64,000 bases of DNA, from the NCBI RefSeq assembly GCF_003790525.1, contig NZ_CP033635.1. One strand, 5' to 3'. Each line of letters starts with the position of its first letter. The stretch's first letter is position 1. This document shows, one piece after another, positions 7,592 through 56,141 of this stretch. Made by a program: the position numbers and the translations under genes. The notes beneath the pieces are model-generated. The model had not been told where the DNA came from. It ran no database searches and saw nothing but the letters and a program-made list of their open reading frames with translations. This DNA comes from Escherichia coli (lineage in GTDB: Bacteria > Pseudomonadota > Gammaproteobacteria > Enterobacterales > Enterobacteriaceae).

Positions 7592-9109
7592 ATGGAAAGA
7601 ATAATGCAAAACGGAAAATGGATTTTGACCTCGCTGGTAATGACTTTTTTTGGCATCCCCATACTGGCGCAATTTTTGGCAGCGGTTGTTGCCATGCTGG
7701 GGGCCGGGCTTGCCGCTATTTTTGATGTTTGCAATTTACTCTTTACGCCAACAATTTATCTTCTACTCAACGTCTTTATGCTGACGCTGGGCGCATTACT
7801 GCTATTTTTCTCTGGGCGAGTGTGGGCGGGCGATAGCGCACCAGAAAACAGAGAAATAGCCGCCTGGCGACAATGTCTTTTTTTAGTTCCCGCTTTATTA
7901 ACCCTGGTTGGCTGGATAATCACGCTACATCTGGCAGATTATCAATTTCGCCAGATGGTTTCAGGTTGGTTGGCAAACCTTATGCTTCCCTGGTTGGGCG
8001 TTTTTACAGTCTCATTCGTCGGTGGTGAGTACTGGTGGATAGTCATTATTCCCGTTGGCGCGCATATCAGTTTTTCACTGGGATACGGCTGGCCGACCAG
8101 ACACCCTTTAACCGGCACCTCCGGTCTACGTTGCCGTAATTTACTTCTGTTCATTCTTCTCTTACTGGGTATTGTCGCTGGTTATCAGGCTTATTTATAT
8201 AAACAGCTTAATCCCGGCGTCGGTGTGCGTGAAAATATTGATACCTGGGCCTGGCGACCCGATAAACTTAATAATCAACTGACGCCACTGCGTGGTAAAC
8301 CACAAATTCAATTTACGCAAAACTGGCCGCGACTCGATGGCGCTACGGCGGCGTACCCCATTTATGCCTCTGCATTTTATGCATTAAGTGTAATACCAGA
8401 GGATTTTCACGTTTGGGATTATCTGGATAACTCTCGTACGCAAGAAGCATATAACAAAATCGTTAAGGGCGATGCTGATATTATTTTCGTGGCGCAACCT
8501 TCCGATGGGCAAAAAAAACGCGCTGAGAAATCGGGCGTCACTTTGCTGTACACGCCATTTGCCCGTGAAGCGTTTGTTTTCATCGTCAATGCGGATAATC
8601 CGGTTAATTCCCTGACTGAACAACAAGTGCGTGACATTTTTAGTGGCGCAATTACCAACTGGCGCACGGTTGGCGGTAACGATCAGGAGATCCAGACCTG
8701 GCAACGCCCGGAAGACTCTGGCAGCCAGACAGTGATGCAATCGCAGGTCATGAAAAATGTCCGCATGATCTCGCCGCAGGAAACCGAAGTGGCAAGCATG
8801 ATGGAGGGAATGATTAAAGTCGTTGCCGAATACCGTAATACAAACAACGCAATAGGCTACACCTTCCGCTATTACGCAACACAAATGAATGCCGATAAAA
8901 ATATAAAACTGCTAGCGATTAACGGTATTGCACCGACTGCGGAAAATATTCGTAACGGCAAATATCCGTATATCATCGATGCCTTTATGGTAACGCGGGA
9001 AAATACTACGTCAGAAACACAAAAACTGGTCGAATGGTTTTTAACGCCGCAGGGACAGAGTCTGGTGGAAGATGTGGGCTATGTGCCGCTGTATCCAACA
9101 ATGAAATAA
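7592..9109 (+). CDS. membrane-anchored PstS-like (phosphate-binding-protein fold) protein: N-terminal polytopic TM domain plus C-terminal PBP domain
   Basis: 505-aa ORF (a second ATG at 7604 has a better-spaced GGAAAG RBS). Residues 1-210 carry about 5-6 hydrophobic helices; the C-terminal 270 aa show PstS-like motifs (AAYPIYASAFY, RPEDSGSQTVM, AIGYTFRYYA) that align with E. coli PstS (FPAPVYAKWA, DGSGTSFVFTSY, AIGYVEYAYA). Possible -10 TATAAT at 7568-7573. Confidence 0.7.
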   Translation: MERIMQNGKWILTSLVMTFFGIPILAQFLAAVVAMLGAGLAAIFDVCNLLFTPTIYLLLNVFMLTLGALLLFFSGRVWAGDSAPENREIAAWRQCLFLVPALLTLVGWIITLHLADYQFRQMVSGWLANLMLPWLGVFTVSFVGGEYWWIVIIPVGAHISFSLGYGWPTRHPLTGTSGLRCRNLLLFILLLLGIVAGYQAYLYKQLNPGVGVRENIDTWAWRPDKLNNQLTPLRGKPQIQFTQNWPRLDGATAAYPIYASAFYALSVIPEDFHVWDYLDNSRTQEAYNKIVKGDADIIFVAQPSDGQKKRAEKSGVTLLYTPFAREAFVFIVNADNPVNSLTEQQVRDIFSGAITNWRTVGGNDQEIQTWQRPEDSGSQTVMQSQVMKNVRMISPQETEVASMMEGMIKVVAEYRNTNNAIGYTFRYYATQMNADKNIKLLAINGIAPTAENIRNGKYPYIIDAFMVTRENTTSETQKLVEWFLTPQGQSLVEDVGYVPLYPTMK

Positions 9110-9134
9110 CGCTCGAGAGAAAGGAATCAGCGCA

Positions 9135-10127
9135 ATGAATAAATTCACCGGTGTTTTACTATTAGGTACGGCGCTACTGGCGGGATGTGTCGACCGGGAA
9201 GGGTACTATAACAGCGTCAGGGAAGAAGACAGCCATGGACTGACGTCTCTGCGGGGGCAACCTGAATTACGTTACAACGATGATTGGTCAAGATGGCCGA
9301 GAGTGTACGGCGCTACAGCCTTATACCCGCTGTATGCCTCCGCGTATTATGAATTAGTACCCGAGCCAAAAGATAAGGATCGAACCTCGCTGGCCTGGCA
9401 GGCGTATGGTTTGCAACAAACCCGAACAGCTGAAGCCTACGATAGTCTGATTAAGGGTACCGCGACGGTTATTTTTGTTGCACAACCGTCGGAAGGACAG
9501 AAAAAACGTGCAGAAGAAGCAGGTGTTAAACTCAAATATACCGCTTTCGCCCGCGAAGCCTTTGTCTTTATCGTTGATATCAAAAACCCGGTTAATTCAC
9601 TTAGCGAACAGCAGGTCAAAGACATTTTTAGCGGTAAAGTGAGTCGCTGGAATAAAGTGGGCGGCGGTGACGAAAGTATAAAAGTCTGGCAGCGGCCAGA
9701 AGATTCTGGAAGCCAAACGGTTATGAAGGGACTGGTTATGCAAGATACTCCAATGCTGCCAGCCAAAAAATCCACTGTTATCGATCTTATGGGCGGTTTA
9801 ATTACCGAAGTCGCCGACTACCAAAATACACCATCTTCTATTGGATACACCTTCCACTATTACGTCACACGTATGAATGACAATATGCTCAAAATGCGCA
9901 AACAGATCAAACTGCTGGCTATAAATGGCGTTGCACCTACAGAGGAAAATATCCGTAACGGCACTTATCCGTACATAATTCATGCTTATATGGTGACGCA
10001 CGAAAACCCTACGCTGGAAACGCAGAAATTCGTCGACTGGTTTTTAAGCCCGCAGGGACAGCAATTGGTAGAGGATGTGGGCTATGTGCCGATTTATGAC
10101 GCATCATCCGAATCATCAGGACAATAA
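9135..10127 (+). CDS. PstS-like substrate-binding lipoprotein, tandem paralog of the upstream gene
   Basis: 330-aa ORF; lipoprotein signal MNKFTGVLLLGTALLAGC (lipobox LAGC); mature part colinear with and clearly similar to the C-terminal domain of ORF 7592-9109 (ALYPLYASAYY, RPEDSGSQTVM, SIGYTFHYYV). Confidence 0.7.
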   Translation: MNKFTGVLLLGTALLAGCVDREGYYNSVREEDSHGLTSLRGQPELRYNDDWSRWPRVYGATALYPLYASAYYELVPEPKDKDRTSLAWQAYGLQQTRTAEAYDSLIKGTATVIFVAQPSEGQKKRAEEAGVKLKYTAFAREAFVFIVDIKNPVNSLSEQQVKDIFSGKVSRWNKVGGGDESIKVWQRPEDSGSQTVMKGLVMQDTPMLPAKKSTVIDLMGGLITEVADYQNTPSSIGYTFHYYVTRMNDNMLKMRKQIKLLAINGVAPTEENIRNGTYPYIIHAYMVTHENPTLETQKFVDWFLSPQGQQLVEDVGYVPIYDASSESSGQ

Positions 10128-10129
10128 AG

Positions 10130-10730
10130 ATGAATAAAATCAGACTTTATATTCCTCCGTTAATTCTTGGTTTTGTTATTGTGCCGTTGTTGGTGTGGCC
10201 GACGGTGGTTGCTCTGGCTGCTTGTGTTATCACGCTGAGTTTTATGGGAGAAATACTGTTCTCTATCCCGCTCATGTTCAGGCGTATTTCACTTCTGGAA
10301 TTCCAACTTGGGTTATTGGCTGAATATGCACTTTTTTTTTCTGTGCCATGTGTTGCGTTGGTTGGCAATTTTCTTGCAGAGCTCAATCTGAACTGAAAAG
10401 CAGACTCCATTGTTGGTTGGTATTTGCACCAGTTTATTTCTGGTTGCTCCTGTGGAATATCATTTTCTATGTCGCGCCAGCGCAAATTGCTTTGCTGGAA
10501 AATATGCGCAATTTCTTTCTGACCATTGTCTGGTTACCCCTGAATTTTTTCAATTTGGGTCTCAGCCGTGGACTGACTTTATCGGTCCGATAAGCGCCCA
10601 GCTTGGTTTTGCATTGGGATATTATTGCCAGTGGCGTAGCAAAAATAGAAGTCAGAGGAAGAAGTGGGGCGAGTGGGTAATGTGTCTGAGTTTTGTTACG
10701 TTGGGTATGATTGCGTGGGCTTTGCGGTAA
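10130..10730 (+). pseudogene. small integral membrane protein gene split over three reading frames (likely frameshift-inactivated), translationally coupled to the upstream PstS-like gene
   Basis: Three overlapping hydrophobic ORFs in three different frames (10130-10396, 10348-10593, 10410-10730). A T9 homopolymer at 10332-10340 sits exactly where restoring one T would join frame 1 to frame 2; a second one-base shift is needed before 10593 (a T6 run lies at 10545-10550). ATG 10130 is 2 nt after the upstream stop. Confidence 0.45.
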
Positions 10731-13857: not shown

Positions 13858-14616
13858 ATGAAACAAACACAACGTCACAACGGTATTATCGAACTGGTTA
13901 AACAGCAGGGTTATGTCAGCACCGAGGAGCTGGTAGAGCATTTCTCCGTTAGCCCGCAGACTATTCGCCGCGATCTCAACGAGCTGGCAGAGCAAAACCT
14001 GATCCTGCGCCATCATGGCGGTGCGGCGCTGCCTTCCAGTTCGGTTAATACGCCGTGGCACGATCGCAAGGCCACCCAGACCGAAGAAAAAGAGCGCATC
14101 GCCCGCAAAGTGGCGGAGCAAATTCCCAATGGCTCGACGCTGTTTATCGATATCGGCACCACGCCGGAAGCGGTGGCGCACGCGCTGCTTAATCACAGCA
14201 ATTTACGCATTGTGACCAACAATCTCAACGTCGCTAACACGCTGATGGTAAAAGAGGATTTCCGTATCATTCTTGCCGGTGGCGAATTACGCAGCCGCGA
14301 TGGCGGGATCATTGGCGAAGCAACGCTCGATTTTATCTCCCAGTTCCGCCTTGATTTCGGCATTCTGGGGATAAGCGGCATCGATAGCGACGGCTCGCTA
14401 CTGGAGTTCGATTACCACGAAGTTCGCACCAAACGCGCCATCATTGAGAACTCGCGCCACGTTATGCTGGTTGTCGACCACTCAAAATTTGGCCGTAACG
14501 CGATGGTCAATATGGGCAGTATCAGCATGGTAGATGCCGTCTACACCGACGCCCCGCCGCCAGTAAGCGTGATGCAGGTGCTGACGGACCACCATATTCA
14601 ACTGGAGCTGTGCTGA
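13858..14616 (+). CDS. glpR: glycerol-3-phosphate regulon repressor, DeoR family (252 aa)
   Basis: MKQTQRHNGIIELVKQQGYVSTEELVEHFSVSPQTIRRDL (DeoR HTH); start trimmed from track ORF 13807. Its 3' end overlaps the convergent rtcR 3' end by 19 nt. Confidence 0.9.
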   Translation: MKQTQRHNGIIELVKQQGYVSTEELVEHFSVSPQTIRRDLNELAEQNLILRHHGGAALPSSSVNTPWHDRKATQTEEKERIARKVAEQIPNGSTLFIDIGTTPEAVAHALLNHSNLRIVTNNLNVANTLMVKEDFRIILAGGELRSRDGGIIGEATLDFISQFRLDFGILGISGIDSDGSLLEFDYHEVRTKRAIIENSRHVMLVVDHSKFGRNAMVNMGSISMVDAVYTDAPPPVSVMQVLTDHHIQLELC

Positions 14617-39877: not shown

Positions 39878-39908
39878 AAACGGGAGGTGAAGGTGCCTCC
39901 CGTTTTTA
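39878..39908 (+). terminator. rho-independent terminator of ompR-envZ
   Basis: Hairpin cgggagg tgaaggtg cctcccg followed by T5; the stop codon of the minus-strand ORF 39906-40202 lies inside the T-run. Confidence 0.65.
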
Positions 39909-40202
39909 GATTGTTTTCAATTGATTGATAATGAAAGGATTCGCTTGCAAAAGCAGGAGCAATTTTCGGGGTGCTCCGGTAGGCTGACGGCGTTTGGTTT
40001 CCCAGCTTTTGACCAGGTCATAACTTACCCCTACGGCGACAGCAAAATCTTGCTGACGTAAACCCGTTGCTTCACGGATCGCTTTTACATCGATTTCGCT
40101 AAAAGTATGGACGTGCTCTGGTTCTGGCGTTTCTTCACCCTTTTCGATGCGTACCATTTCTTCTGCGCTGGCAAGAAGATCAGCAAATAATTCATCTTTC
40201 AT
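39906..40202 (-). CDS. putative antitoxin, helix-turn-helix (XRE / HigA-2-like) DNA-binding protein (98 aa)
   Basis: Small acidic ORF immediately downstream of a toxin-like gene; central-to-C-terminal segment GLRQQDFAVAVGVSYDLVKSWETKRRQPTGAPRKLLLLL resembles an HTH antitoxin module; absent from the compact envZ-pck junction I expect in E. coli K-12. Confidence 0.6.
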   Translation of the reverse strand: MKDELFADLLASAEEMVRIEKGEETPEPEHVHTFSEIDVKAIREATGLRQQDFAVAVGVSYDLVKSWETKRRQPTGAPRKLLLLLQANPFIINQLKTI

Positions 40203-40260
40203 CTGTTTTCAATGCCTCCGTTGACATTTCGGCCATGGTGGAATTTGTGGAGCTTCAACA

Positions 40261-40578
40261 TTAAAGCAGCTTCTCGGACAATAGTTTCAATGCCTTTCTT
40301 TGTTCTTCTGTTAAATCATCCTGTTCATTTTTAGGATAAATCAACGCCAGATAAATTCGGCCATTGCGTGTTACGTTGTAATAAATTATCCGAGTGCCAC
40401 CCCGTTTCCCCATTCCAGAACGGTTCCAGCGAATTTTTCTAAAACTGCCTGTGCCTGCGATAATGTCACCGGCAGTGGGATCTTGAATGAGTAGTTCCTG
40501 AAAAGCCCGGAACTCATCATCAGGTAGCAATAACTGGCGGCGTTTGCTAAATCCTTGTAGTTCAATAAAGGTGAACAT
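40261..40578 (-). CDS. putative type II toxin, RelE/ParE superfamily (HigB-2 / Gp49-like), 105 aa
   Basis: Signature GTGSFRKIRW...GKRGGTRIIYY...YLALIYPKNEQDDLTEEQ closely matches my recollection of HigB-2/Gp49-family toxins; toxin-first gene order with a 58-nt gap to the downstream HTH gene; AT-rich relative to flanking core genes. Confidence 0.6.
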   Translation of the reverse strand: MFTFIELQGFSKRRQLLLPDDEFRAFQELLIQDPTAGDIIAGTGSFRKIRWNRSGMGKRGGTRIIYYNVTRNGRIYLALIYPKNEQDDLTEEQRKALKLLSEKLL

Positions 40579-49782: not shown

Positions 49783-52335
49783 TCAGAACAATTCCTGTGC
49801 CTCGCCATTATCGATAATGGTCGTTCCCACCTCGTGCACCGCCTGTTGTGTCGGCTGCGTACCTTCGATGAAATACTCTTCGCGGCTGTTGCCACCATTA
49901 GCTAACTGCCCGGTGCTGCGATCGATATTCACCGTCACAATACCCGGCGGCGGCGTCAGCGGCTGCTCCGGCACACCTTCAAGAACGGCTTTCATATAAG
50001 CGTCCCATGCAGGCTGGGCACTCTTGGCACCGCCTTCGTAACCTGAGATCTGATCTTTAATCGCTCCAGAAGCCGTTGTATGACCGAGATTACGACGGTG
50101 ATCATCAAAGCCAATCCAGACCGAGGTCACAACGCCCGGACCGTAACCCGAGAACCACGCATCTTTCGAACTGTTAGTGGTACCCGTTTTTCCGCCTATA
50201 TCATGCCGTTGTAAATCACGACCTGCTCGCCAGCCAGTACCCTGCCAGCCTGGTTCACCAAAAATATTGGTGTTCAAGGCACTCTTAATCAGGAATGCCA
50301 GCGGTGTGTTGATGACGTGCGGTGCGTACTCCTGCGCGCCAGTCTTCGCCACTAACGCCTGATTTGCCTGCTCCAGCTGCGGCATTGGTACAGAAACATT
50401 CTGCTGCTCGCGGGAGATAGCGACATCTTCAACATCGTTATTTTCCAGAACGTTCGATTTCTGCGTATCACCGTAAATCACCGGAATATCGCATTCCGGG
50501 CAGGCTACTTTCGGTTTCGCTTCGAAAATCACGCCGCCCTGATCGTTTTCAATTTTGCTGATAAACCACGGGTCCACCAGGAAGCCGCCGTTCGCCATGA
50601 CCGCGTAGCCACGCGCCACCTGCATTGGGGTGAAGGACGCTGAACCCAGCGCCAGCGATTCGGTGTGGACAATGTTTTGTGCCGGGAAGCCGAAGCGTTG
50701 CAGATATTCTGCAGCGTAGTCGACGCCCATCGCCCGCATTGCGCGTACCATCACCACGTTTTTCGACTGACCCAGCCCCTGACGTAAGCGAATTGGACCA
50801 GCATATTGTGGCGGCGAGTTTTTCGGCTGCCAGTCAGAACCGGCACCTGCGTCCCAGCGAGAAATTGGCACATCGTTCAACATACTTGCCAGCGTCAGAC
50901 CTTTATCCATCGCCGCGGTGTAGAGGAACGGTTTGATGTTGGAACCCACCTGACGCAGTGCCTGGGTGGCGCGGTTAAACTTGCTCTGATTGAAATCAAA
51001 GCCACCGACCAGCGCCATAACGGCACCGTTTTGCGGATTGATCGACACCAGCGCCGAGTTCACTTCCGGCACTTGTGCCAGCCACCATGCATCGCCAACC
51101 TGACGAACCCAGATTTGCTGACCCGTTTGCAAAACATCGGTCACTTTACGCGGCGTCGGTCCCTGCTGAGTATCCGAACGGTAAGGACGCGCCCAGCGAA
51201 CGCCTTCCATACTCAATGCGACGGTCGACCCGTCCGCCAGCATCGCCGTCGCTTCCTGAGGATTGGCGCTGGTGACTGCGGCAGGCAGCAGAGGACCATA
51301 GGTCGGCAGCGCCTTCAACGTATCGGTAATCTTGTTGTTATCCCACGCCGATTCGCCCACTTTCCACAGCACATTTGCCGGGCCGCGATAGCCGTGGCGC
51401 ATGTCGTAGTCCAGCACGTTATTACGTACTGCCTGCTGTGCGGCCTGCTGTACTTTGCGGGTGATGGTGGTGTAAATGCGATAACCGTCTTCATAGGCAC
51501 TTTCGCCATAACGGTTATACATCTCCTGGCGCACCATTTCGCTCAGGTACGGCGCAGAGAAAACAATCTCCGGCGCGTGATAGTTAGCGTTAATCGCCTC
51601 AGTGTGTGTCTGATCGAACTGTTGTTGGGTGATATACCCTTCATCCAGCATCCGCGACAGTACGACGTTACGCCGCGCGACGGCACGATCCATTGAGTAG
51701 AGCGGATTAAAGGTGGAAGGCGCTTTCGGCAGCCCGGCTATCACCGCCATTTCGTTCAGCGTCAGTTGGTCGACCGTTTTACCGAAATAGACTTGTGCCG
51801 CAGCACCGACACCATAGGCGCGGTAACCGAGGTAAATCTTGTTCAGATAAAGCTCGAGGATCTCGTCTTTCGTCAGCAACTGTTCAATGCGAATCGCGAG
51901 GAAGACTTCCTTAATCTTACGCATCAGCGTGCGTTCTGGACTGAGGAAGAAGTTTCTCGCCAGCTGCTGGGTAATGGTACTCGCCCCTTGTGACGCGTGG
52001 CCGGAGAACAGCGCCACACTTGCCGCACGGAAGATCCCCACCGGGTCAACGCCGTGATGCTCGTAGAAGCGGCTGTCTTCCGTCGCGATAAAGGCTTTCA
52101 CCATCTCCGGCGGGATTTGATCCAACGTAACCGGAATACGACGTTTCTCACCGTATTGAGCAATCAGCTCGCCATCGGCGCTGTAAATCTGCATCGGAAT
52201 TTGCAGGCGAACATCTTTTAATGTCGCCACATCCGGCAGTTGTGGCTCGATGTAGCGGTATAGGCCATAAATCGAGCCTGCTCCCAGCAGAATGCAACAG
52301 ACTGCAAGGATCAAAAAATACTTTACGAACTTCAC
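49783..52335 (-). CDS. mrcA: penicillin-binding protein 1A (850 aa)
   Basis: Glycosyltransferase and transpeptidase motifs (SxxK ...SNIKPF..., KTGTT); N-terminus at a GTG codon (VKFVKYFLILAV) rather than the upstream ATG at 52359 used by the ORF track. Confidence 0.9.
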   Translation of the reverse strand: MKFVKYFLILAVCCILLGAGSIYGLYRYIEPQLPDVATLKDVRLQIPMQIYSADGELIAQYGEKRRIPVTLDQIPPEMVKAFIATEDSRFYEHHGVDPVGIFRAASVALFSGHASQGASTITQQLARNFFLSPERTLMRKIKEVFLAIRIEQLLTKDEILELYLNKIYLGYRAYGVGAAAQVYFGKTVDQLTLNEMAVIAGLPKAPSTFNPLYSMDRAVARRNVVLSRMLDEGYITQQQFDQTHTEAINANYHAPEIVFSAPYLSEMVRQEMYNRYGESAYEDGYRIYTTITRKVQQAAQQAVRNNVLDYDMRHGYRGPANVLWKVGESAWDNNKITDTLKALPTYGPLLPAAVTSANPQEATAMLADGSTVALSMEGVRWARPYRSDTQQGPTPRKVTDVLQTGQQIWVRQVGDAWWLAQVPEVNSALVSINPQNGAVMALVGGFDFNQSKFNRATQALRQVGSNIKPFLYTAAMDKGLTLASMLNDVPISRWDAGAGSDWQPKNSPPQYAGPIRLRQGLGQSKNVVMVRAMRAMGVDYAAEYLQRFGFPAQNIVHTESLALGSASFTPMQVARGYAVMANGGFLVDPWFISKIENDQGGVIFEAKPKVACPECDIPVIYGDTQKSNVLENNDVEDVAISREQQNVSVPMPQLEQANQALVAKTGAQEYAPHVINTPLAFLIKSALNTNIFGEPGWQGTGWRAGRDLQRHDIGGKTGTTNSSKDAWFSGYGPGVVTSVWIGFDDHRRNLGHTTASGAIKDQISGYEGGAKSAQPAWDAYMKAVLEGVPEQPLTPPPGIVTVNIDRSTGQLANGGNSREEYFIEGTQPTQQAVHEVGTTIIDNGEAQELF

Positions 52336-52454
52336 TGGAAATTTCCCATTTAGTTTCATTTGGGCAGTTTATAAACAAACGCGCGGTAGTATAAAGGCAA
52401 GCCAGACGCATTGATATACCCGTCAGAGTGACGGGTGATAAGGAGATCATCACA

Positions 52455-53234
52455 ATGGCATTTAAGATCTGGCAAATTGGTTTGCATTTACAACAGCAAG
52501 AAGCGGTAGCGGTTGCGATCGTGCGGGGCGCAAAAGAATGCTTTTTGCAACGCTGGTGGCGGTTGCCGCTGGAGAATGACATTATCAAAGATGGGCGGAT
52601 TGTTGATGCGCAGCGGCTGGCTAACACGTTGTTACCGTGGAGCCGCGAACTGCCGCAGCGTCATCACATTATGTTGGCGTTTCCCGCCAGTCGCACATTA
52701 CAGCGGTCATTTCCGCGCCCGTCGATGTCCCTTGGTGAGCGGGAGCAAACGGCCTGGCTGTCCGGGACGATGGCCCGTGAACTGGATATGGATCCGGACT
52801 CCCTGCGCTTCGATTACAGCGAAGACTCACTCAGTCCCGCCTATAACGTGACTGCCGCGCAAAGCAAAGAGCTGGCAACGCTGCTTACTCTGGCAGAAAG
52901 GTTGCGTGTTCATGTTAGCGCGATCACCCCGGATGCCAGTGCATTACAGCGATTCCTGCCTTTTTTACCTTCTCATCAGCAATGTCTGGCCTGGCGTGAT
53001 AACGAACAGTGGCTGTGGGCGACGCGCTATCGCTGGGGGCGCAAACTGGCGGTGGGGATGACTAGCGCGAAGGAGCTGGCGGCAGCGTTATCCGTTGATC
53101 CCGAAAGCGTCGCGCTATGTGGCGAAGGCGGATTTGATCCCTGGGAGGCCGTTTCTGTTCGTCAGCCGCCGCTACCGCCGCCAGGTGGAGACTTTGCCAT
53201 CGCGCTGGGGCTGGCGCTAGGGAAGGCGAACTGA
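52455..53234 (+). CDS. hofM: type IV pilus/competence assembly protein HofM (PilM-like), 259 aa
   Basis: MAFKIWQIGLHLQQQEAVAVAIV...; first gene of the five-gene overlapping hof cluster, divergent from mrcA. Confidence 0.8.
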   Translation: MAFKIWQIGLHLQQQEAVAVAIVRGAKECFLQRWWRLPLENDIIKDGRIVDAQRLANTLLPWSRELPQRHHIMLAFPASRTLQRSFPRPSMSLGEREQTAWLSGTMARELDMDPDSLRFDYSEDSLSPAYNVTAAQSKELATLLTLAERLRVHVSAITPDASALQRFLPFLPSHQQCLAWRDNEQWLWATRYRWGRKLAVGMTSAKELAAALSVDPESVALCGEGGFDPWEAVSVRQPPLPPPGGDFAIALGLALGKAN

Positions 53235-53773
53235 TGAACCCGCCAATTAATTTTTTGCCCTGGCGACAGCAACGCCGGACCGCTTTTCTGCGTTTCTGGT
53301 TGCTGATGTTCGTTGCGCCTCTGCTGCTGGCCGTCGGGATTACGCTAATAATGCGTCTGACAAGCAACGCCGAAGCACGCGTAAACGCCGTTTTGCTTCA
53401 GGCGGAACAACAACTCGCTCGCAGCTTACAGATAACGAAACCACGTTTGCTGGAGCAACAGCAGTTACGCGAACAGCGTTTGCAAAGGCAGCGCCAGCGA
53501 CAATTTACCCGCGACTGGCAATCTGCGCTGGAAGCACTGGCGGCGCTTTTACCCGAGCACGCCTGGCTGACAACGATAAGCTGGCAGCAGGGAACGCTGG
53601 AGATCAAGGGGCTGACAACAAGCATTACCGCGTTAAACGCACTAGAAACGTCACTCCGCCAGGATGCATCTTTTCATCTCAATCAGCGGGGGGCCACGCA
53701 GCAGGATGCGCAGGGACGCTGGCAATTTGAGTATCAGTTAACAAGGAAGGTTAGCGATGGACATGCTCTTTGA
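53234..53773 (+). CDS. hofN: HofN (PilN-like), 179 aa
   Basis: Single N-terminal TM segment then coiled-coil region; start overlaps the hofM stop. Confidence 0.8.
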   Translation: MNPPINFLPWRQQRRTAFLRFWLLMFVAPLLLAVGITLIMRLTSNAEARVNAVLLQAEQQLARSLQITKPRLLEQQQLREQRLQRQRQRQFTRDWQSALEALAALLPEHAWLTTISWQQGTLEIKGLTTSITALNALETSLRQDASFHLNQRGATQQDAQGRWQFEYQLTRKVSDGHAL

Positions 53774-54197
53774 CTGGTGGTTCGCCGCATCACCCCGCCT
53801 CCGCCAGCTTTGCTGGGCATTCTGGTTGATGATGTTAGTTACGCTCATTTTTCTGTCATCGACACACCAGGAAGAGAGCGACGCATTAATTCGACTACGG
53901 GCGAGTCATCACCAGCAGTGGGCCGCACTGTATCGCCTGGTAGACACCACTTCCTTCAGCGAAGAAAAAACGCTGCCCTTTTCGCCACTGGATTTTCAGT
54001 TGCCCGGCGCGCAACTGGTTTCCTGGCATCCATCCGCGCAGGGAGGTGAGTTGGCGTTGAAAACGCTGTGGGAAGCAGTGCCGTCGGCATTTACACGGCT
54101 GGCAGAGCGCAACGTCAGCGTGAGCCGTTTTTCGTTAAGCGTGGAAGGTGATGATCTTTTGTTCACGCTACAACTGGAGACGCCGCATGAGGGGTAA
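53757..54197 (+). CDS. hofO: HofO (PilO-like), 146 aa
   Basis: Overlapping ORF in conserved operon position. Confidence 0.75.
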   Translation: MDMLFDWWFAASPRLRQLCWAFWLMMLVTLIFLSSTHQEESDALIRLRASHHQQWAALYRLVDTTSFSEEKTLPFSPLDFQLPGAQLVSWHPSAQGGELALKTLWEAVPSAFTRLAERNVSVSRFSLSVEGDDLLFTLQLETPHEG

Positions 54198-54591
54198 ACG
54201 CTGGTTGTTGGCAGGTATTGCATTGTGCCTTTTAACCGGTATGCGTGACCCTTTTAAACCGCCGGAAGATCTATGCCGGATTAGCGAACTTAGCCAGTGG
54301 CGCTATCAGGGGATAGTAGGGCGAGGCGAGCGCATCATCGGTGTAATAAAAGACGGGCAAAAGAAATGGCGACGGGTGCAGCAAAACGATGTGCTGGAAA
54401 ACGGCTGGACAATTTTACAGCTGACGCCAGACGCACTAACGCTGGGAACCGGAACAAACTGCGAACCGCCACAATGGTTGTGGCAACGGCAAGGAGATAC
54501 AAATGAAGCAATGGATAGCCGCACTACTGTTGATGCTGATACCCGGCGTACAGGCGGCAAAGCCGCAAAAAGTGACACTGATGGTGGATGA
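54187..54591 (+). CDS. hofP: HofP (PilP-like lipoprotein), 134 aa
   Basis: MRGKRWLLAGIALCLLTGM...; start trimmed from track ORF 54148. Confidence 0.7.
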   Translation: MRGKRWLLAGIALCLLTGMRDPFKPPEDLCRISELSQWRYQGIVGRGERIIGVIKDGQKKWRRVQQNDVLENGWTILQLTPDALTLGTGTNCEPPQWLWQRQGDTNEAMDSRTTVDADTRRTGGKAAKSDTDGG

Positions 54592-55741
54592 CGTTCCGGT
54601 AGCTCAGGTGTTGCAGGCGCTGGCTGAACAGGAGAAGTTGAACCTGGTGGTGTCGCCAGACGTCAGCGGTACGGTGTCGTTACATCTAACAGATGTTCCC
54701 TGGAAGCAGGCACTACAAACTGTAGTGAAAAGCGCCGGACTGATAACGCGCCAGGAGGGCAACATTCTCTCAGTGCATTCCATTGCCTGGCAGAATGACA
54801 ATATCGCCCGTCAGGAAGCGGAGCAGGCGCGGGCGCAGGCAAATCTGCCGCTGGAAAATCGCAATATTACTCTGCAATACGCCGACGCCGGAGAGCTGGC
54901 GAAAGCTGGGGAGAAGCTACTGAGTGCCAAAGGGAGTATGACCGTCGATAAACGCACCAATCGCCTTTTGCTGCGAGATAACAAAACGGCGTTAAGCGCC
55001 CTTGAACAGTGGGTAGCGCAAATGGATCTGCCGGTCGGGCAAGTTGAGCTGTCGGCGCATATTGTCACCATTAATGAAAAAAGTTTGCGTGAGTTAGGCG
55101 TGAAATGGACGCTGGCCGATGCGCAACAAGCTGGTGGCGTTGGGCAAGTCACCACGCTTGGCAGCGACCTCTCCGTAGCGACGGCGACAACGCATGTCGG
55201 TTTTAACATTGGGCGTATCAACGGACGTTTGCTGGATCTTGAGCTTTCTGCGCTCGAACAAAAACAGCAGCTGGATATTATCGCCAGTCCGCGTCTGCTG
55301 GCCTCACATCTTCAGCCTGCCAGCATTAAACAGGGGAGCGAAATTCCATATCAGGTTTCCAGCGGGGAAAGTGGCGCGACGTCGGTGGAATTTAAAGAGG
55401 CCGTCCTGGGGATGGAGGTCACGCCCACGGTGTTACAAAAAGGTCGCATCCGGCTGAAATTACACATCAGCCAGAACGTTCCGGGGCAGGTGCTACAGCA
55501 GGCCGATGGCGAAGTGCTGGCGATTGATAAGCAGGAGATCGAAACGCAGGTCGAGGTCAAAAGCGGAGAAACGTTGGCGCTGGGCGGCATTTTTACCCGT
55601 AAAAATAAATCGGGTCAGGATAGCGTACCGTTGCTTGGCGACATTCCCTGGTTCGGGCAATTATTTCGTCATGACGGAAAAGAAGATGAACGACGCGAGT
55701 TAGTGGTGTTTATCACGCCACGACTGGTTTCCAGTGAGTAA
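54503..55741 (+). CDS. hofQ: outer-membrane secretin HofQ (412 aa)
   Basis: Signal peptide plus secretin C-domain (GETLALGGIF...VVFITPRLV). Confidence 0.85.
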   Translation: MKQWIAALLLMLIPGVQAAKPQKVTLMVDDVPVAQVLQALAEQEKLNLVVSPDVSGTVSLHLTDVPWKQALQTVVKSAGLITRQEGNILSVHSIAWQNDNIARQEAEQARAQANLPLENRNITLQYADAGELAKAGEKLLSAKGSMTVDKRTNRLLLRDNKTALSALEQWVAQMDLPVGQVELSAHIVTINEKSLRELGVKWTLADAQQAGGVGQVTTLGSDLSVATATTHVGFNIGRINGRLLDLELSALEQKQQLDIIASPRLLASHLQPASIKQGSEIPYQVSSGESGATSVEFKEAVLGMEVTPTVLQKGRIRLKLHISQNVPGQVLQQADGEVLAIDKQEIETQVEVKSGETLALGGIFTRKNKSGQDSVPLLGDIPWFGQLFRHDGKEDERRELVVFITPRLVSSE

Positions 55742-56141
55742 ACAGCCGTAAAAGCGGTAATGTTTTTACGCTGAACGTGTTTCATCTATTTGACGCGCGC
55801 AGGTATTTAGCATACAAGGAGTACCGATTTGAGAGTTGGTGCTCTTCGCTGCCTGCGTTCCATGATGATGATTTATCATTCAGGCGGCATTTTGCTGTCT
55901 TTTTTACGCTAATCTTACCCGGTGATTTATCGCCAGAGCGGTGGTAGCAAGGCAGCGCGCTTGCAGCGACCAGATATGCAGAGGGATGGGTGATTTATTC
56001 AGTTGCCAAACCCGCTGGAGTATTGAGATAATTTTCAGTCTGACTCTCGCAATATCTTATGAGGTTTCAGTTCATGTCCTGCGGCGCTCTCTGAGCGAAG
56101 CGGGTTTATCATTAACGAATAGTCTTAGTAGTACCGAAAAA

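Follow-up and report, generated by a model that had tools for sequence, protein, structure and literature searches.

The closest described relatives of the hofMNOPQ operon of Escherichia coli (formerly yrfDCBA-hofQ) are the PilMNOPQ proteins of the type IVa pilus, as described in Pseudomonas, Neisseria, Myxococcus, and Vibrio; the comABCDE genes of Haemophilus influenzae, within the gammaproteobacterial Sxy/CRP-S regulon; and, at the level of single domains, the GspC HR–GspD N0 pair of type II secretion. We analyzed a 64,000-nucleotide (nt) stretch of contig NZ_CP033635.1 (RefSeq assembly GCF_003790525.1), hereafter the window, in which positions 52455 to 55741 coincide exactly with the RefSeq-annotated hofMNOPQ operon; the locus is thus a known one, for which annotation already exists. 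Our subject is the conspicuous 89-nt overlap between its last two genes, hofP and hofQ. The reading that we prefer, and to which we assign a probability of roughly 0.68, is that the overlaps in the operon are genuine, that the length of the hofP/hofQ overlap has a mechanical cause in the signal-peptide codons of hofQ, and that the C-terminal tail thereby added to HofP is most likely a tolerated by-product.

The hof operon among related systems

The five-gene order of the hof cluster is that of PilMNOPQ, and the cluster likewise comprises a PilN domain, HofO in the PilO position, a PilP-fold HofP directly upstream of the secretin, and a secretin with STN/N0, Secretin_N, and Secretin domains. 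HofN matches PF05137 PilN (E = 3.3e-10), HofO matches PF25319 HofO (E = 2.4e-25), and HofP matches the Pfam family PF10748 (E = 7.8e-79). HofQ scores 856 bits against the HofQ model NF007851 (cutoff, 598), which aligns over residues 1 to 412 of 412, and 448 bits against the PilQ model TIGR02515 (cutoff, 284); PF07660 STN, PF03958 Secretin_N, and PF00263 Secretin all exceed their thresholds, and the match to the PilQ structure 6w6m in the PDB has an E value of 2e-74, which is what is expected of a PilQ-family secretin. The likeness to PilMNOPQ has its limits, however: HofP and HofQ fall well short of PilP and PilQ in length, no AMIN domain is present, and the alignment of HofQ with PilQ chains covers only their C-terminal two-thirds. 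HofM, moreover, falls below every Pfam threshold (best match, T2SSL; E = 0.0033; 17.3 bits against a cutoff of 25.5) and has no NCBIfam match; the first genes of distant orthologous clusters match PilM_2.

The fold of HofP was modeled with AlphaFold2 from 41 dereplicated orthologues. Core residues 31 to 100 form a confident beta-sandwich, with a predicted local distance difference test score (pLDDT) of about 90, and the top 13 Foldseek matches of this core in the PDB are all PilP or the HR domains of GspC/PulC/LspC (the two best at E = 8e-5 and 7e-4, and the rest weaker but with a probability of about 1). Besides PilP, the core model matches GspC/PulC HR (3oss_C and 6hcg_e), a resemblance that suggests a shared role for HofP and GspC HR in docking to a secretin N0 domain, although the GspC/GspD pair belongs to a secretion system different from hof.

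With the Sxy/CRP-S regulon, the operon shares the orthology of hofM (yrfD) to comA, the presence of CRP-S sites, and induction by Sxy, which raises yrfD expression 16-fold via CRP-S; the E. coli operon differs in being otherwise essentially silent in laboratory conditions (PMC1635313). Sxy-dependent DNA uptake in E. coli requires hofQ (PMC3330819). For the Sxy/CRP-S-induced type IV pilus DNA-uptake machinery, the operon supplies a PilMNOPQ-like module of alignment proteins and secretin. Its genes and the elements of the hofP/hofQ junction are as follows (positions in the window).

52455..53234, + strand: hofM, 259 amino acids (aa), RefSeq coding sequence (CDS); gene in the PilM position; AAGGAG 9 nt 5′ of the ATG
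53234..53773, + strand: hofN, 179 aa, RefSeq CDS; PilN family; 1-nt overlap with the hofM stop (TGATG)
53757..54197, + strand: hofO, 146 aa, RefSeq CDS; 17-nt overlap with hofN; AAGGAAGG 7 nt 5′ of the ATG
54187..54591, + strand: hofP, 134 aa, RefSeq CDS; 11-nt overlap with hofO; TGA stop at 54589-54591
54187..54501, + strand: hofP codons 1-105; N-terminal hydrophobic helix, then the PilP-like beta-sandwich core
54502..54591, + strand: hofP codons 106-134 and TGA; 29-residue tail NEAMDSRTTVDADTRRTGGKAAKSDTDGG, encoded within hofQ
54491..54496, + strand: hofQ Shine-Dalgarno (SD) sequence AAGGAG, inside hofP codons Q102-G103-D104; 6 nt before the ATG
54503..55741, + strand: hofQ, 412 aa, RefSeq CDS; PilQ-family secretin
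54503..54556, + strand: hofQ codons 1-18; predicted Sec signal peptide MKQWIAALLLMLIPGVQA, with predicted cleavage after VQA
54584..54592, + strand: hofQ codons V28-D29-D30 (GTG GAT GAC), which contain the hofP stop TGA (T of GAT plus GA of GAC)

The overlaps of 1, 17, about 11, and 89 nt reported in the initial annotation are borne out by the RefSeq coordinates and by the junctions themselves, which read TGATG at hofM/hofN, place the hofO ATG 17 nt before the hofN stop and the hofP ATG 11 nt before the hofO stop, and put the hofP TGA 89 nt into hofQ. The cluster had also been described as intact, and all five open reading frames (ORFs) are indeed uninterrupted in the window. Overlaps occur in 10 of the 37 same-strand neighbor pairs of the window, among which 89 nt is an outlier, the next longest being 17 nt. 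The 4.2-kb stretch around the cluster matches E. coli SMS-3-5 (NC_010498.1) at 100% identity and occurs in practically all complete E. coli genomes, the same overlap geometry recurs in the K-12-lineage genome J53 and in the divergent E. coli Esc14, and both the M-N-O-P-Q gene order and the mrcA ... aroK-aroB chromosomal context are conserved.

The hofQ start and the length of the overlap

The initial annotation had left open whether the 89-nt overlap is real or reflects a hofQ start placed too far upstream, and had proposed signal-peptide prediction as a way of locating the true start. Judged by heuristic criteria (an n-region, an h-region of 7 to 15 residues, and small residues at positions −3 and −1), a Sec signal peptide opens precisely at the annotated ATG (54503). 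The HofQ N terminus reads MKQWIAALLLMLIPGVQA|AKPQ, in which K2 supplies the positive n-region, W4 to V16 form a 13-residue hydrophobic core, and V-Q-A precedes A19; the 9-residue Kyte-Doolittle maximum is 3.3, at residues 5 to 13, versus 1.88 anywhere in residues 31 to 412. Because solved PilQ/HofQ structures align from HofQ residue 23 to 27 onward, the folded N0 domain starts right past this signal peptide. The ATG is preceded at 6 nt by the SD sequence AAGGAG. Across a set of 79 species ranging from Escherichia to Klebsiella, with HofQ proteins that are 67 to 98% identical, a lysine or arginine in residues 2 to 7 together with a hydrophobic core is present in every species, and an SD-like motif precedes hofQ in 78. 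By signal peptide, SD sequence, and conservation alike, hofQ starts at the annotated ATG and the 89-nt overlap is genuine; the suspected downstream start is not upheld.

The length of the overlap can be traced to the register in which hofP reads hofQ. Each hofP codon in the overlap consists of the third position of one hofQ codon and the first two positions of the next, a relation that holds in 77 of the 79 species. Stops in this register take the form T|AA, T|AG, or T|GA; one arises only where a hofQ codon ends in T and the next specifies Asn, Lys, Ser (AGY), Arg (AGR), Asp, or Glu. Since the hydrophobic core of the signal peptide has none of the required residues, hofP cannot terminate there. 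Within codons 1 to 30 of E. coli hofQ, opportunities for a stop exist only at A19|K20, V28|D29, and D29|D30, and synonymous resampling of the gene makes a stop at D29|D30 the likeliest single outcome (probability, 0.46 to 0.47); D29 and D30 belong to the conserved V-D-D motif of the HofQ N0 domain. The overlap is long, then, because hofP lacks a stop before the hofQ start and from there on reads the stop-free register of the signal peptide.

A word-indexed search with HofP reached only Escherichia, Salmonella, and Citrobacter, plus fragments, and a profile search was used instead for the distant comparison, which draws on sampled, anonymous distant loci. In distant relatives within the HofP clade, hofP ends where the first acidic or basic residues appear beyond the signal peptide (at AHA|SD|D, at SWA|D|K, and at LMD|DVP), with overlaps of about 68, 62, and 92 nt, respectively. 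At locus L088, where the register is the same, the hofP stop precedes the hofQ ATG by 1 nt. The most distant PilP-like/secretin clusters sampled have gaps of 38 to 78 nt after the P gene, in contrast to the overlap in hof.

In our reading, hofQ initiates at 54503 from its own strong SD sequence, predicted to be unstructured, with its first 18 codons specifying the predicted Sec signal peptide, and hofP, without a stop before the hofQ ATG, has to run across these signal-peptide codons and ends at an early charged residue of mature HofQ, here at the T|GA of GAT-GAC (D29-D30). From an L088-like state, a single stop-codon substitution would yield the long form of hofP. As in other long overlaps that arise by loss of a stop codon, the upstream gene is extended by a stretch that shows little conservation and whose sequence is dictated by the downstream frame, with L088 representing the un-extended state; hofP differs from such cases generally in that the length of its extension is set by the stop-free signal-peptide register and in that its end point is more conserved than expected.

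For a reference genome, the finding that this conspicuous 89-nt overlap does not stem from a misplaced start has little import beyond annotation hygiene. The underlying rule is that, of the two alternative registers, one allows no stops within signal-peptide codons, such that an upstream gene losing its stop in that register is forced across the whole of the downstream signal peptide; this rule could help curators to weigh long overlaps upstream of genes for exported proteins.

The HofP tail and competing explanations

In the alignment, conserved HofP sequence ends at C92-E-P-x-x-W-x-W-x-R-[E/Q]-G103, whose R-[E/Q]-G codons are also the hofQ SD sequence, and none of the columns after G103 reaches 90% conservation. 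Among five Escherichia lineages, the ratio of nonsynonymous to synonymous change (pN/pS) is 0.17 in the HofP core and 2.55 in the overlap when read in the hofP frame; read in the hofQ frame, the overlap yields 0.43 overall and 0.00 in its mature HofQ part. It is HofQ, therefore, that dictates the sequence of the overlap (2.55 in the one frame versus 0.00 for the mature HofQ part of the other), and purifying selection on protein in both frames, by which dual coding would be recognized, is not seen. The AlphaFold2 model assigns a pLDDT of <50 to exactly residues 106 to 134 of HofP, the part encoded by the overlap. Nor is the length of the tail constant: it ranges from 0 to 46 residues across species (with variants of 0, 12, 20, 40, and 46 residues), and the overlap measures 4 nt in two metagenome-assembled genomes (MAGs; L048 and L051), 38 nt in Phytobacter and Kosakonia, 62 to 65 nt in several genera, 122 nt in Kluyvera ascorbata (L066 and L068), and 140 nt in Enterobacter sp. 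ENT03 (L033). In the Kluyvera and ENT03 genomes, the overlap is extended because HofQ D29 is encoded by GAC rather than GAT, so that hofP reads on. Most likely, the tail of HofP is a disordered, fast-changing addition to the PilP-like domain, tolerated as a by-product rather than kept as a functional module, and it is probably dispensable.

Some of these genomes constitute natural variants of the tail. L033, L066, and L068 carry extended-tail alleles, and in L048 and L051 an ATGA overlap of hofP with hofQ leads to a tail-less HofP of 103 to 105 aa; the change of frame in these two MAGs may reflect either a genuine indel or faulty assembly of the A-run that precedes the ATG. In Escherichia albertii NBRC 107761 (L004:4185-4286), hofP has a nonsense codon at position 34 (RIS*LTQ, versus E34 in E. 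coli), with the remaining gene sequence and the 89-nt overlap arrangement still recognizable, such that this type strain apparently carries hofP as a pseudogene.

Of the explanations that compete with a tolerated by-product, the one that survives best, though we regard it as unlikely, holds that the HofP tail, or the hofP termination site 86 nt into hofQ, is maintained by selection across the Enterobacteriaceae. In one version, HofP would carry a disordered C-terminal extension acting through its length or composition at the HofP-HofQ interface (of the PilP-N0 type); in another, ribosomes translating hofP would traverse the hofQ initiation region and release past the signal-peptide codons, thereby setting the HofP:HofQ ratio. 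Several results favor such selection and count against the by-product interpretation. We compared the positions of hofP stops with those expected under synonymous codon resampling, and again with context-dependent codon frequencies, in 73 species, in 41 clusters formed at 90% HofQ identity, and in 26 clusters formed at 85%. Stops at V-D-[D/E] number 60 in the species set (about 30 to 33 expected), 32 in the 41 clusters (15 to 17 expected), and 19 in the 26 clusters (9.5 to 11 expected), and in the 41 clusters both earlier stops (7, versus 16 to 18 expected) and later stops (2, versus 7 to 8) are depleted. The null is calibrated, in that off-frame stops over the rest of hofQ occur at 1.08 times expectation. 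Furthermore, D29 is encoded by GAT in 73 of the 79 species and by GAC in six, and in two of these six a GTT codon at V28 restores the stop one codon earlier. The synonymous divergence (pS) of hofQ is 0.19 in the overlap, about half of the 0.37 in the rest of the gene, and tails of 20 to 30 residues are also found in the distant relatives of the HofP clade.

Against selection on the tail stand its lack of sequence conservation, its pN/pS of 2.55 and predicted disorder, and the range of tail lengths that occur naturally. Codon biases of similar size occur in single columns elsewhere in hofQ, and genes commonly diverge less at synonymous sites near their 5′ ends for other reasons. The excess of stops at V-D-[D/E] persists after dereplication, but with residual phylogenetic nonindependence among related species. 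The stop-position results are a hint that tail length or the hofP termination site may be under weak selection. If the signal were real, the conserved hofP stop would amount to a minor refinement, translational or structural, of DNA-uptake machinery that is poorly expressed.

The predominance of GAT at D29 was also considered as proof of a maintained stop and was downgraded to suggestive, given control columns nearly as high: its frequency of 0.92 is only the highest among 21 comparable hofQ columns, of which others reach 0.86 to 0.89 (GAT or T-ending frequencies in the control columns span 0.49 to 0.89). As a separate observation on this register (third position plus the next first and second), stops over hofQ codons 31 to the end in the 73 species (L001-L081) are unevenly used, at 1.35 (T|GA), 1.13 (T|AA), and 0.42 (T|AG) times the expectation from synonymous resampling.

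In bacterial annotations, a very long same-strand overlap is frequently the product of a wrongly placed start, and in-frame TTG, ATG, and GTG codons are present at hofQ codons 10, 11, 24, 27, 28, and 36. We nonetheless consider it highly improbable that the hofQ start is misannotated and that a true start lies downstream in frame, with a shorter overlap or none. Starts at codons 10 to 28 would leave an overlap with hofP of 8 to 62 nt while shortening or removing the signal peptide, whereas codon 36, the first whose use would remove the overlap, and those after it lie within the N0 domain and lack a hydrophobic leader; no alternative start has an SD sequence comparable to AAGGAG, and the annotated start, SD sequence, and signal peptide are kept in 78 to 79 of the 79 species. 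Among all in-frame ATG, GTG, and TTG codons within codons 1 to 80, those that remove the overlap are without a signal peptide or a good SD sequence; a downstream start that combines a signal peptide with the loss of the overlap, which the initial annotation had named as grounds for abandoning its view, is not to be found there.

Least probable of all is an artefactual hofP ORF, produced by a sequencing frameshift in this strain or by a hofP gene that truly ends near the hofQ start: the 4-nt overlap and different frame relation in MAGs L048 and L051 speak for it, but population and cross-species data rule it out, in that a 134-aa HofP with the 89-nt overlap is annotated in independent complete genomes, the hofP/hofQ junction is found in 5,425 of 5,426 complete E. 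coli genomes (with at least 95% identity in all but one of the 5,426 matching records), and the frame relation is common to 77 of the 79 species.

The sole truncated junction match among the matches listed, covering 83% of the query, is at positions 373098 to 373346 of NZ_OZ369161.1 (E. coli CNR20180903), where the underlying features are hofP, a hypothetical protein, and barA, an arrangement suggestive of a rearrangement or deletion that removed hofQ.

Other junctions and neighboring features

At the hofM/hofN, hofN/hofO, and hofO/hofP junctions, the SD sequence of each downstream gene sits inside the upstream gene, and the upstream stop lies near the downstream start. A junction of 1 or 4 nt between hofM and hofN is found in 62 of 75 other species, the 17-nt overlap of hofN and hofO in 47 of 77, and the 11-nt overlap of hofO and hofP in 67 of 79. 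This arrangement, kept across genera, is the classic one for coupling, and the translational coupling that the initial annotation read from the overlaps is plausible for the 1-, 11-, and 17-nt junctions. The case for coupling seems least convincing at hofP/hofQ, where stop and start are not close in the classical sense; independent initiation of hofQ would be the simpler reading there because the hofP stop lies 86 nt past the hofQ start and because hofQ has a strong SD sequence of its own, predicted to be unpaired. The SD spacing of hofQ is the strongest in the operon, and its SD sequence and ATG are unpaired in both the minimum-free-energy and centroid folds. We found no RNA structure masking the hofQ ribosome-binding site, the fold being no more stable than those of shuffled sequences (z = −1.1). 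Our literature search found no paper on the hofP/hofQ overlap or on translational coupling in the hofMNOPQ operon.

Elsewhere in the window, the initial annotation had listed further overlaps of the ATGA type. For ompR/envZ, this holds (4 nt, ATGA), but glgC/glgA and feoB/feoC overlap by 1 nt each, and rpe/gph and gph/trpS by 8 nt each. The 4-nt overlap of glgB and glgX was absent from that list.

Two features flank the operon.

52179..52304, + strand: published yrfD promoter fragment used in electrophoretic mobility shift assays, with two predicted CRP-S sites; PMC1635313 primers mapped at 52179-52198 and 52283-52304
55745..55768, + strand: terminator-like hairpin and T-run, 4 nt past the hofQ stop, from a consensus scan only; possible end of the operon

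The promoter fragment falls within the 5′ coding part of mrcA, a gene divergent from hofM, 151 to 276 nt upstream of the hofM ATG. A search upstream of hofM for the CRP-S core TGCGA-N6-TCGCA, with up to two mismatches, gave no match, and the exact sites were not located. The consensus scan returned no more terminator-like sites in the region than would be expected from shuffled sequence.

For mrcA (49783-52359, − strand), the ORF extends 8 codons further upstream than the RefSeq start (858 versus 850 aa), and two in-frame ATG starts are possible. Between pckA and envZ, positions 39906 to 40578 contain a RelE/ParE-family toxin gene and a NadS-family gene, and between glpD and glgP, positions 7601 to 10730 contain two adjacent genes for PstS-family phosphate-binding proteins plus a frameshifted pseudogene. 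Lastly, rtcR and a gene for a DeoR/GlpR-family regulator are convergent, with a 19-nt overlap of their 3′ ends (14598-14616) in RefSeq.

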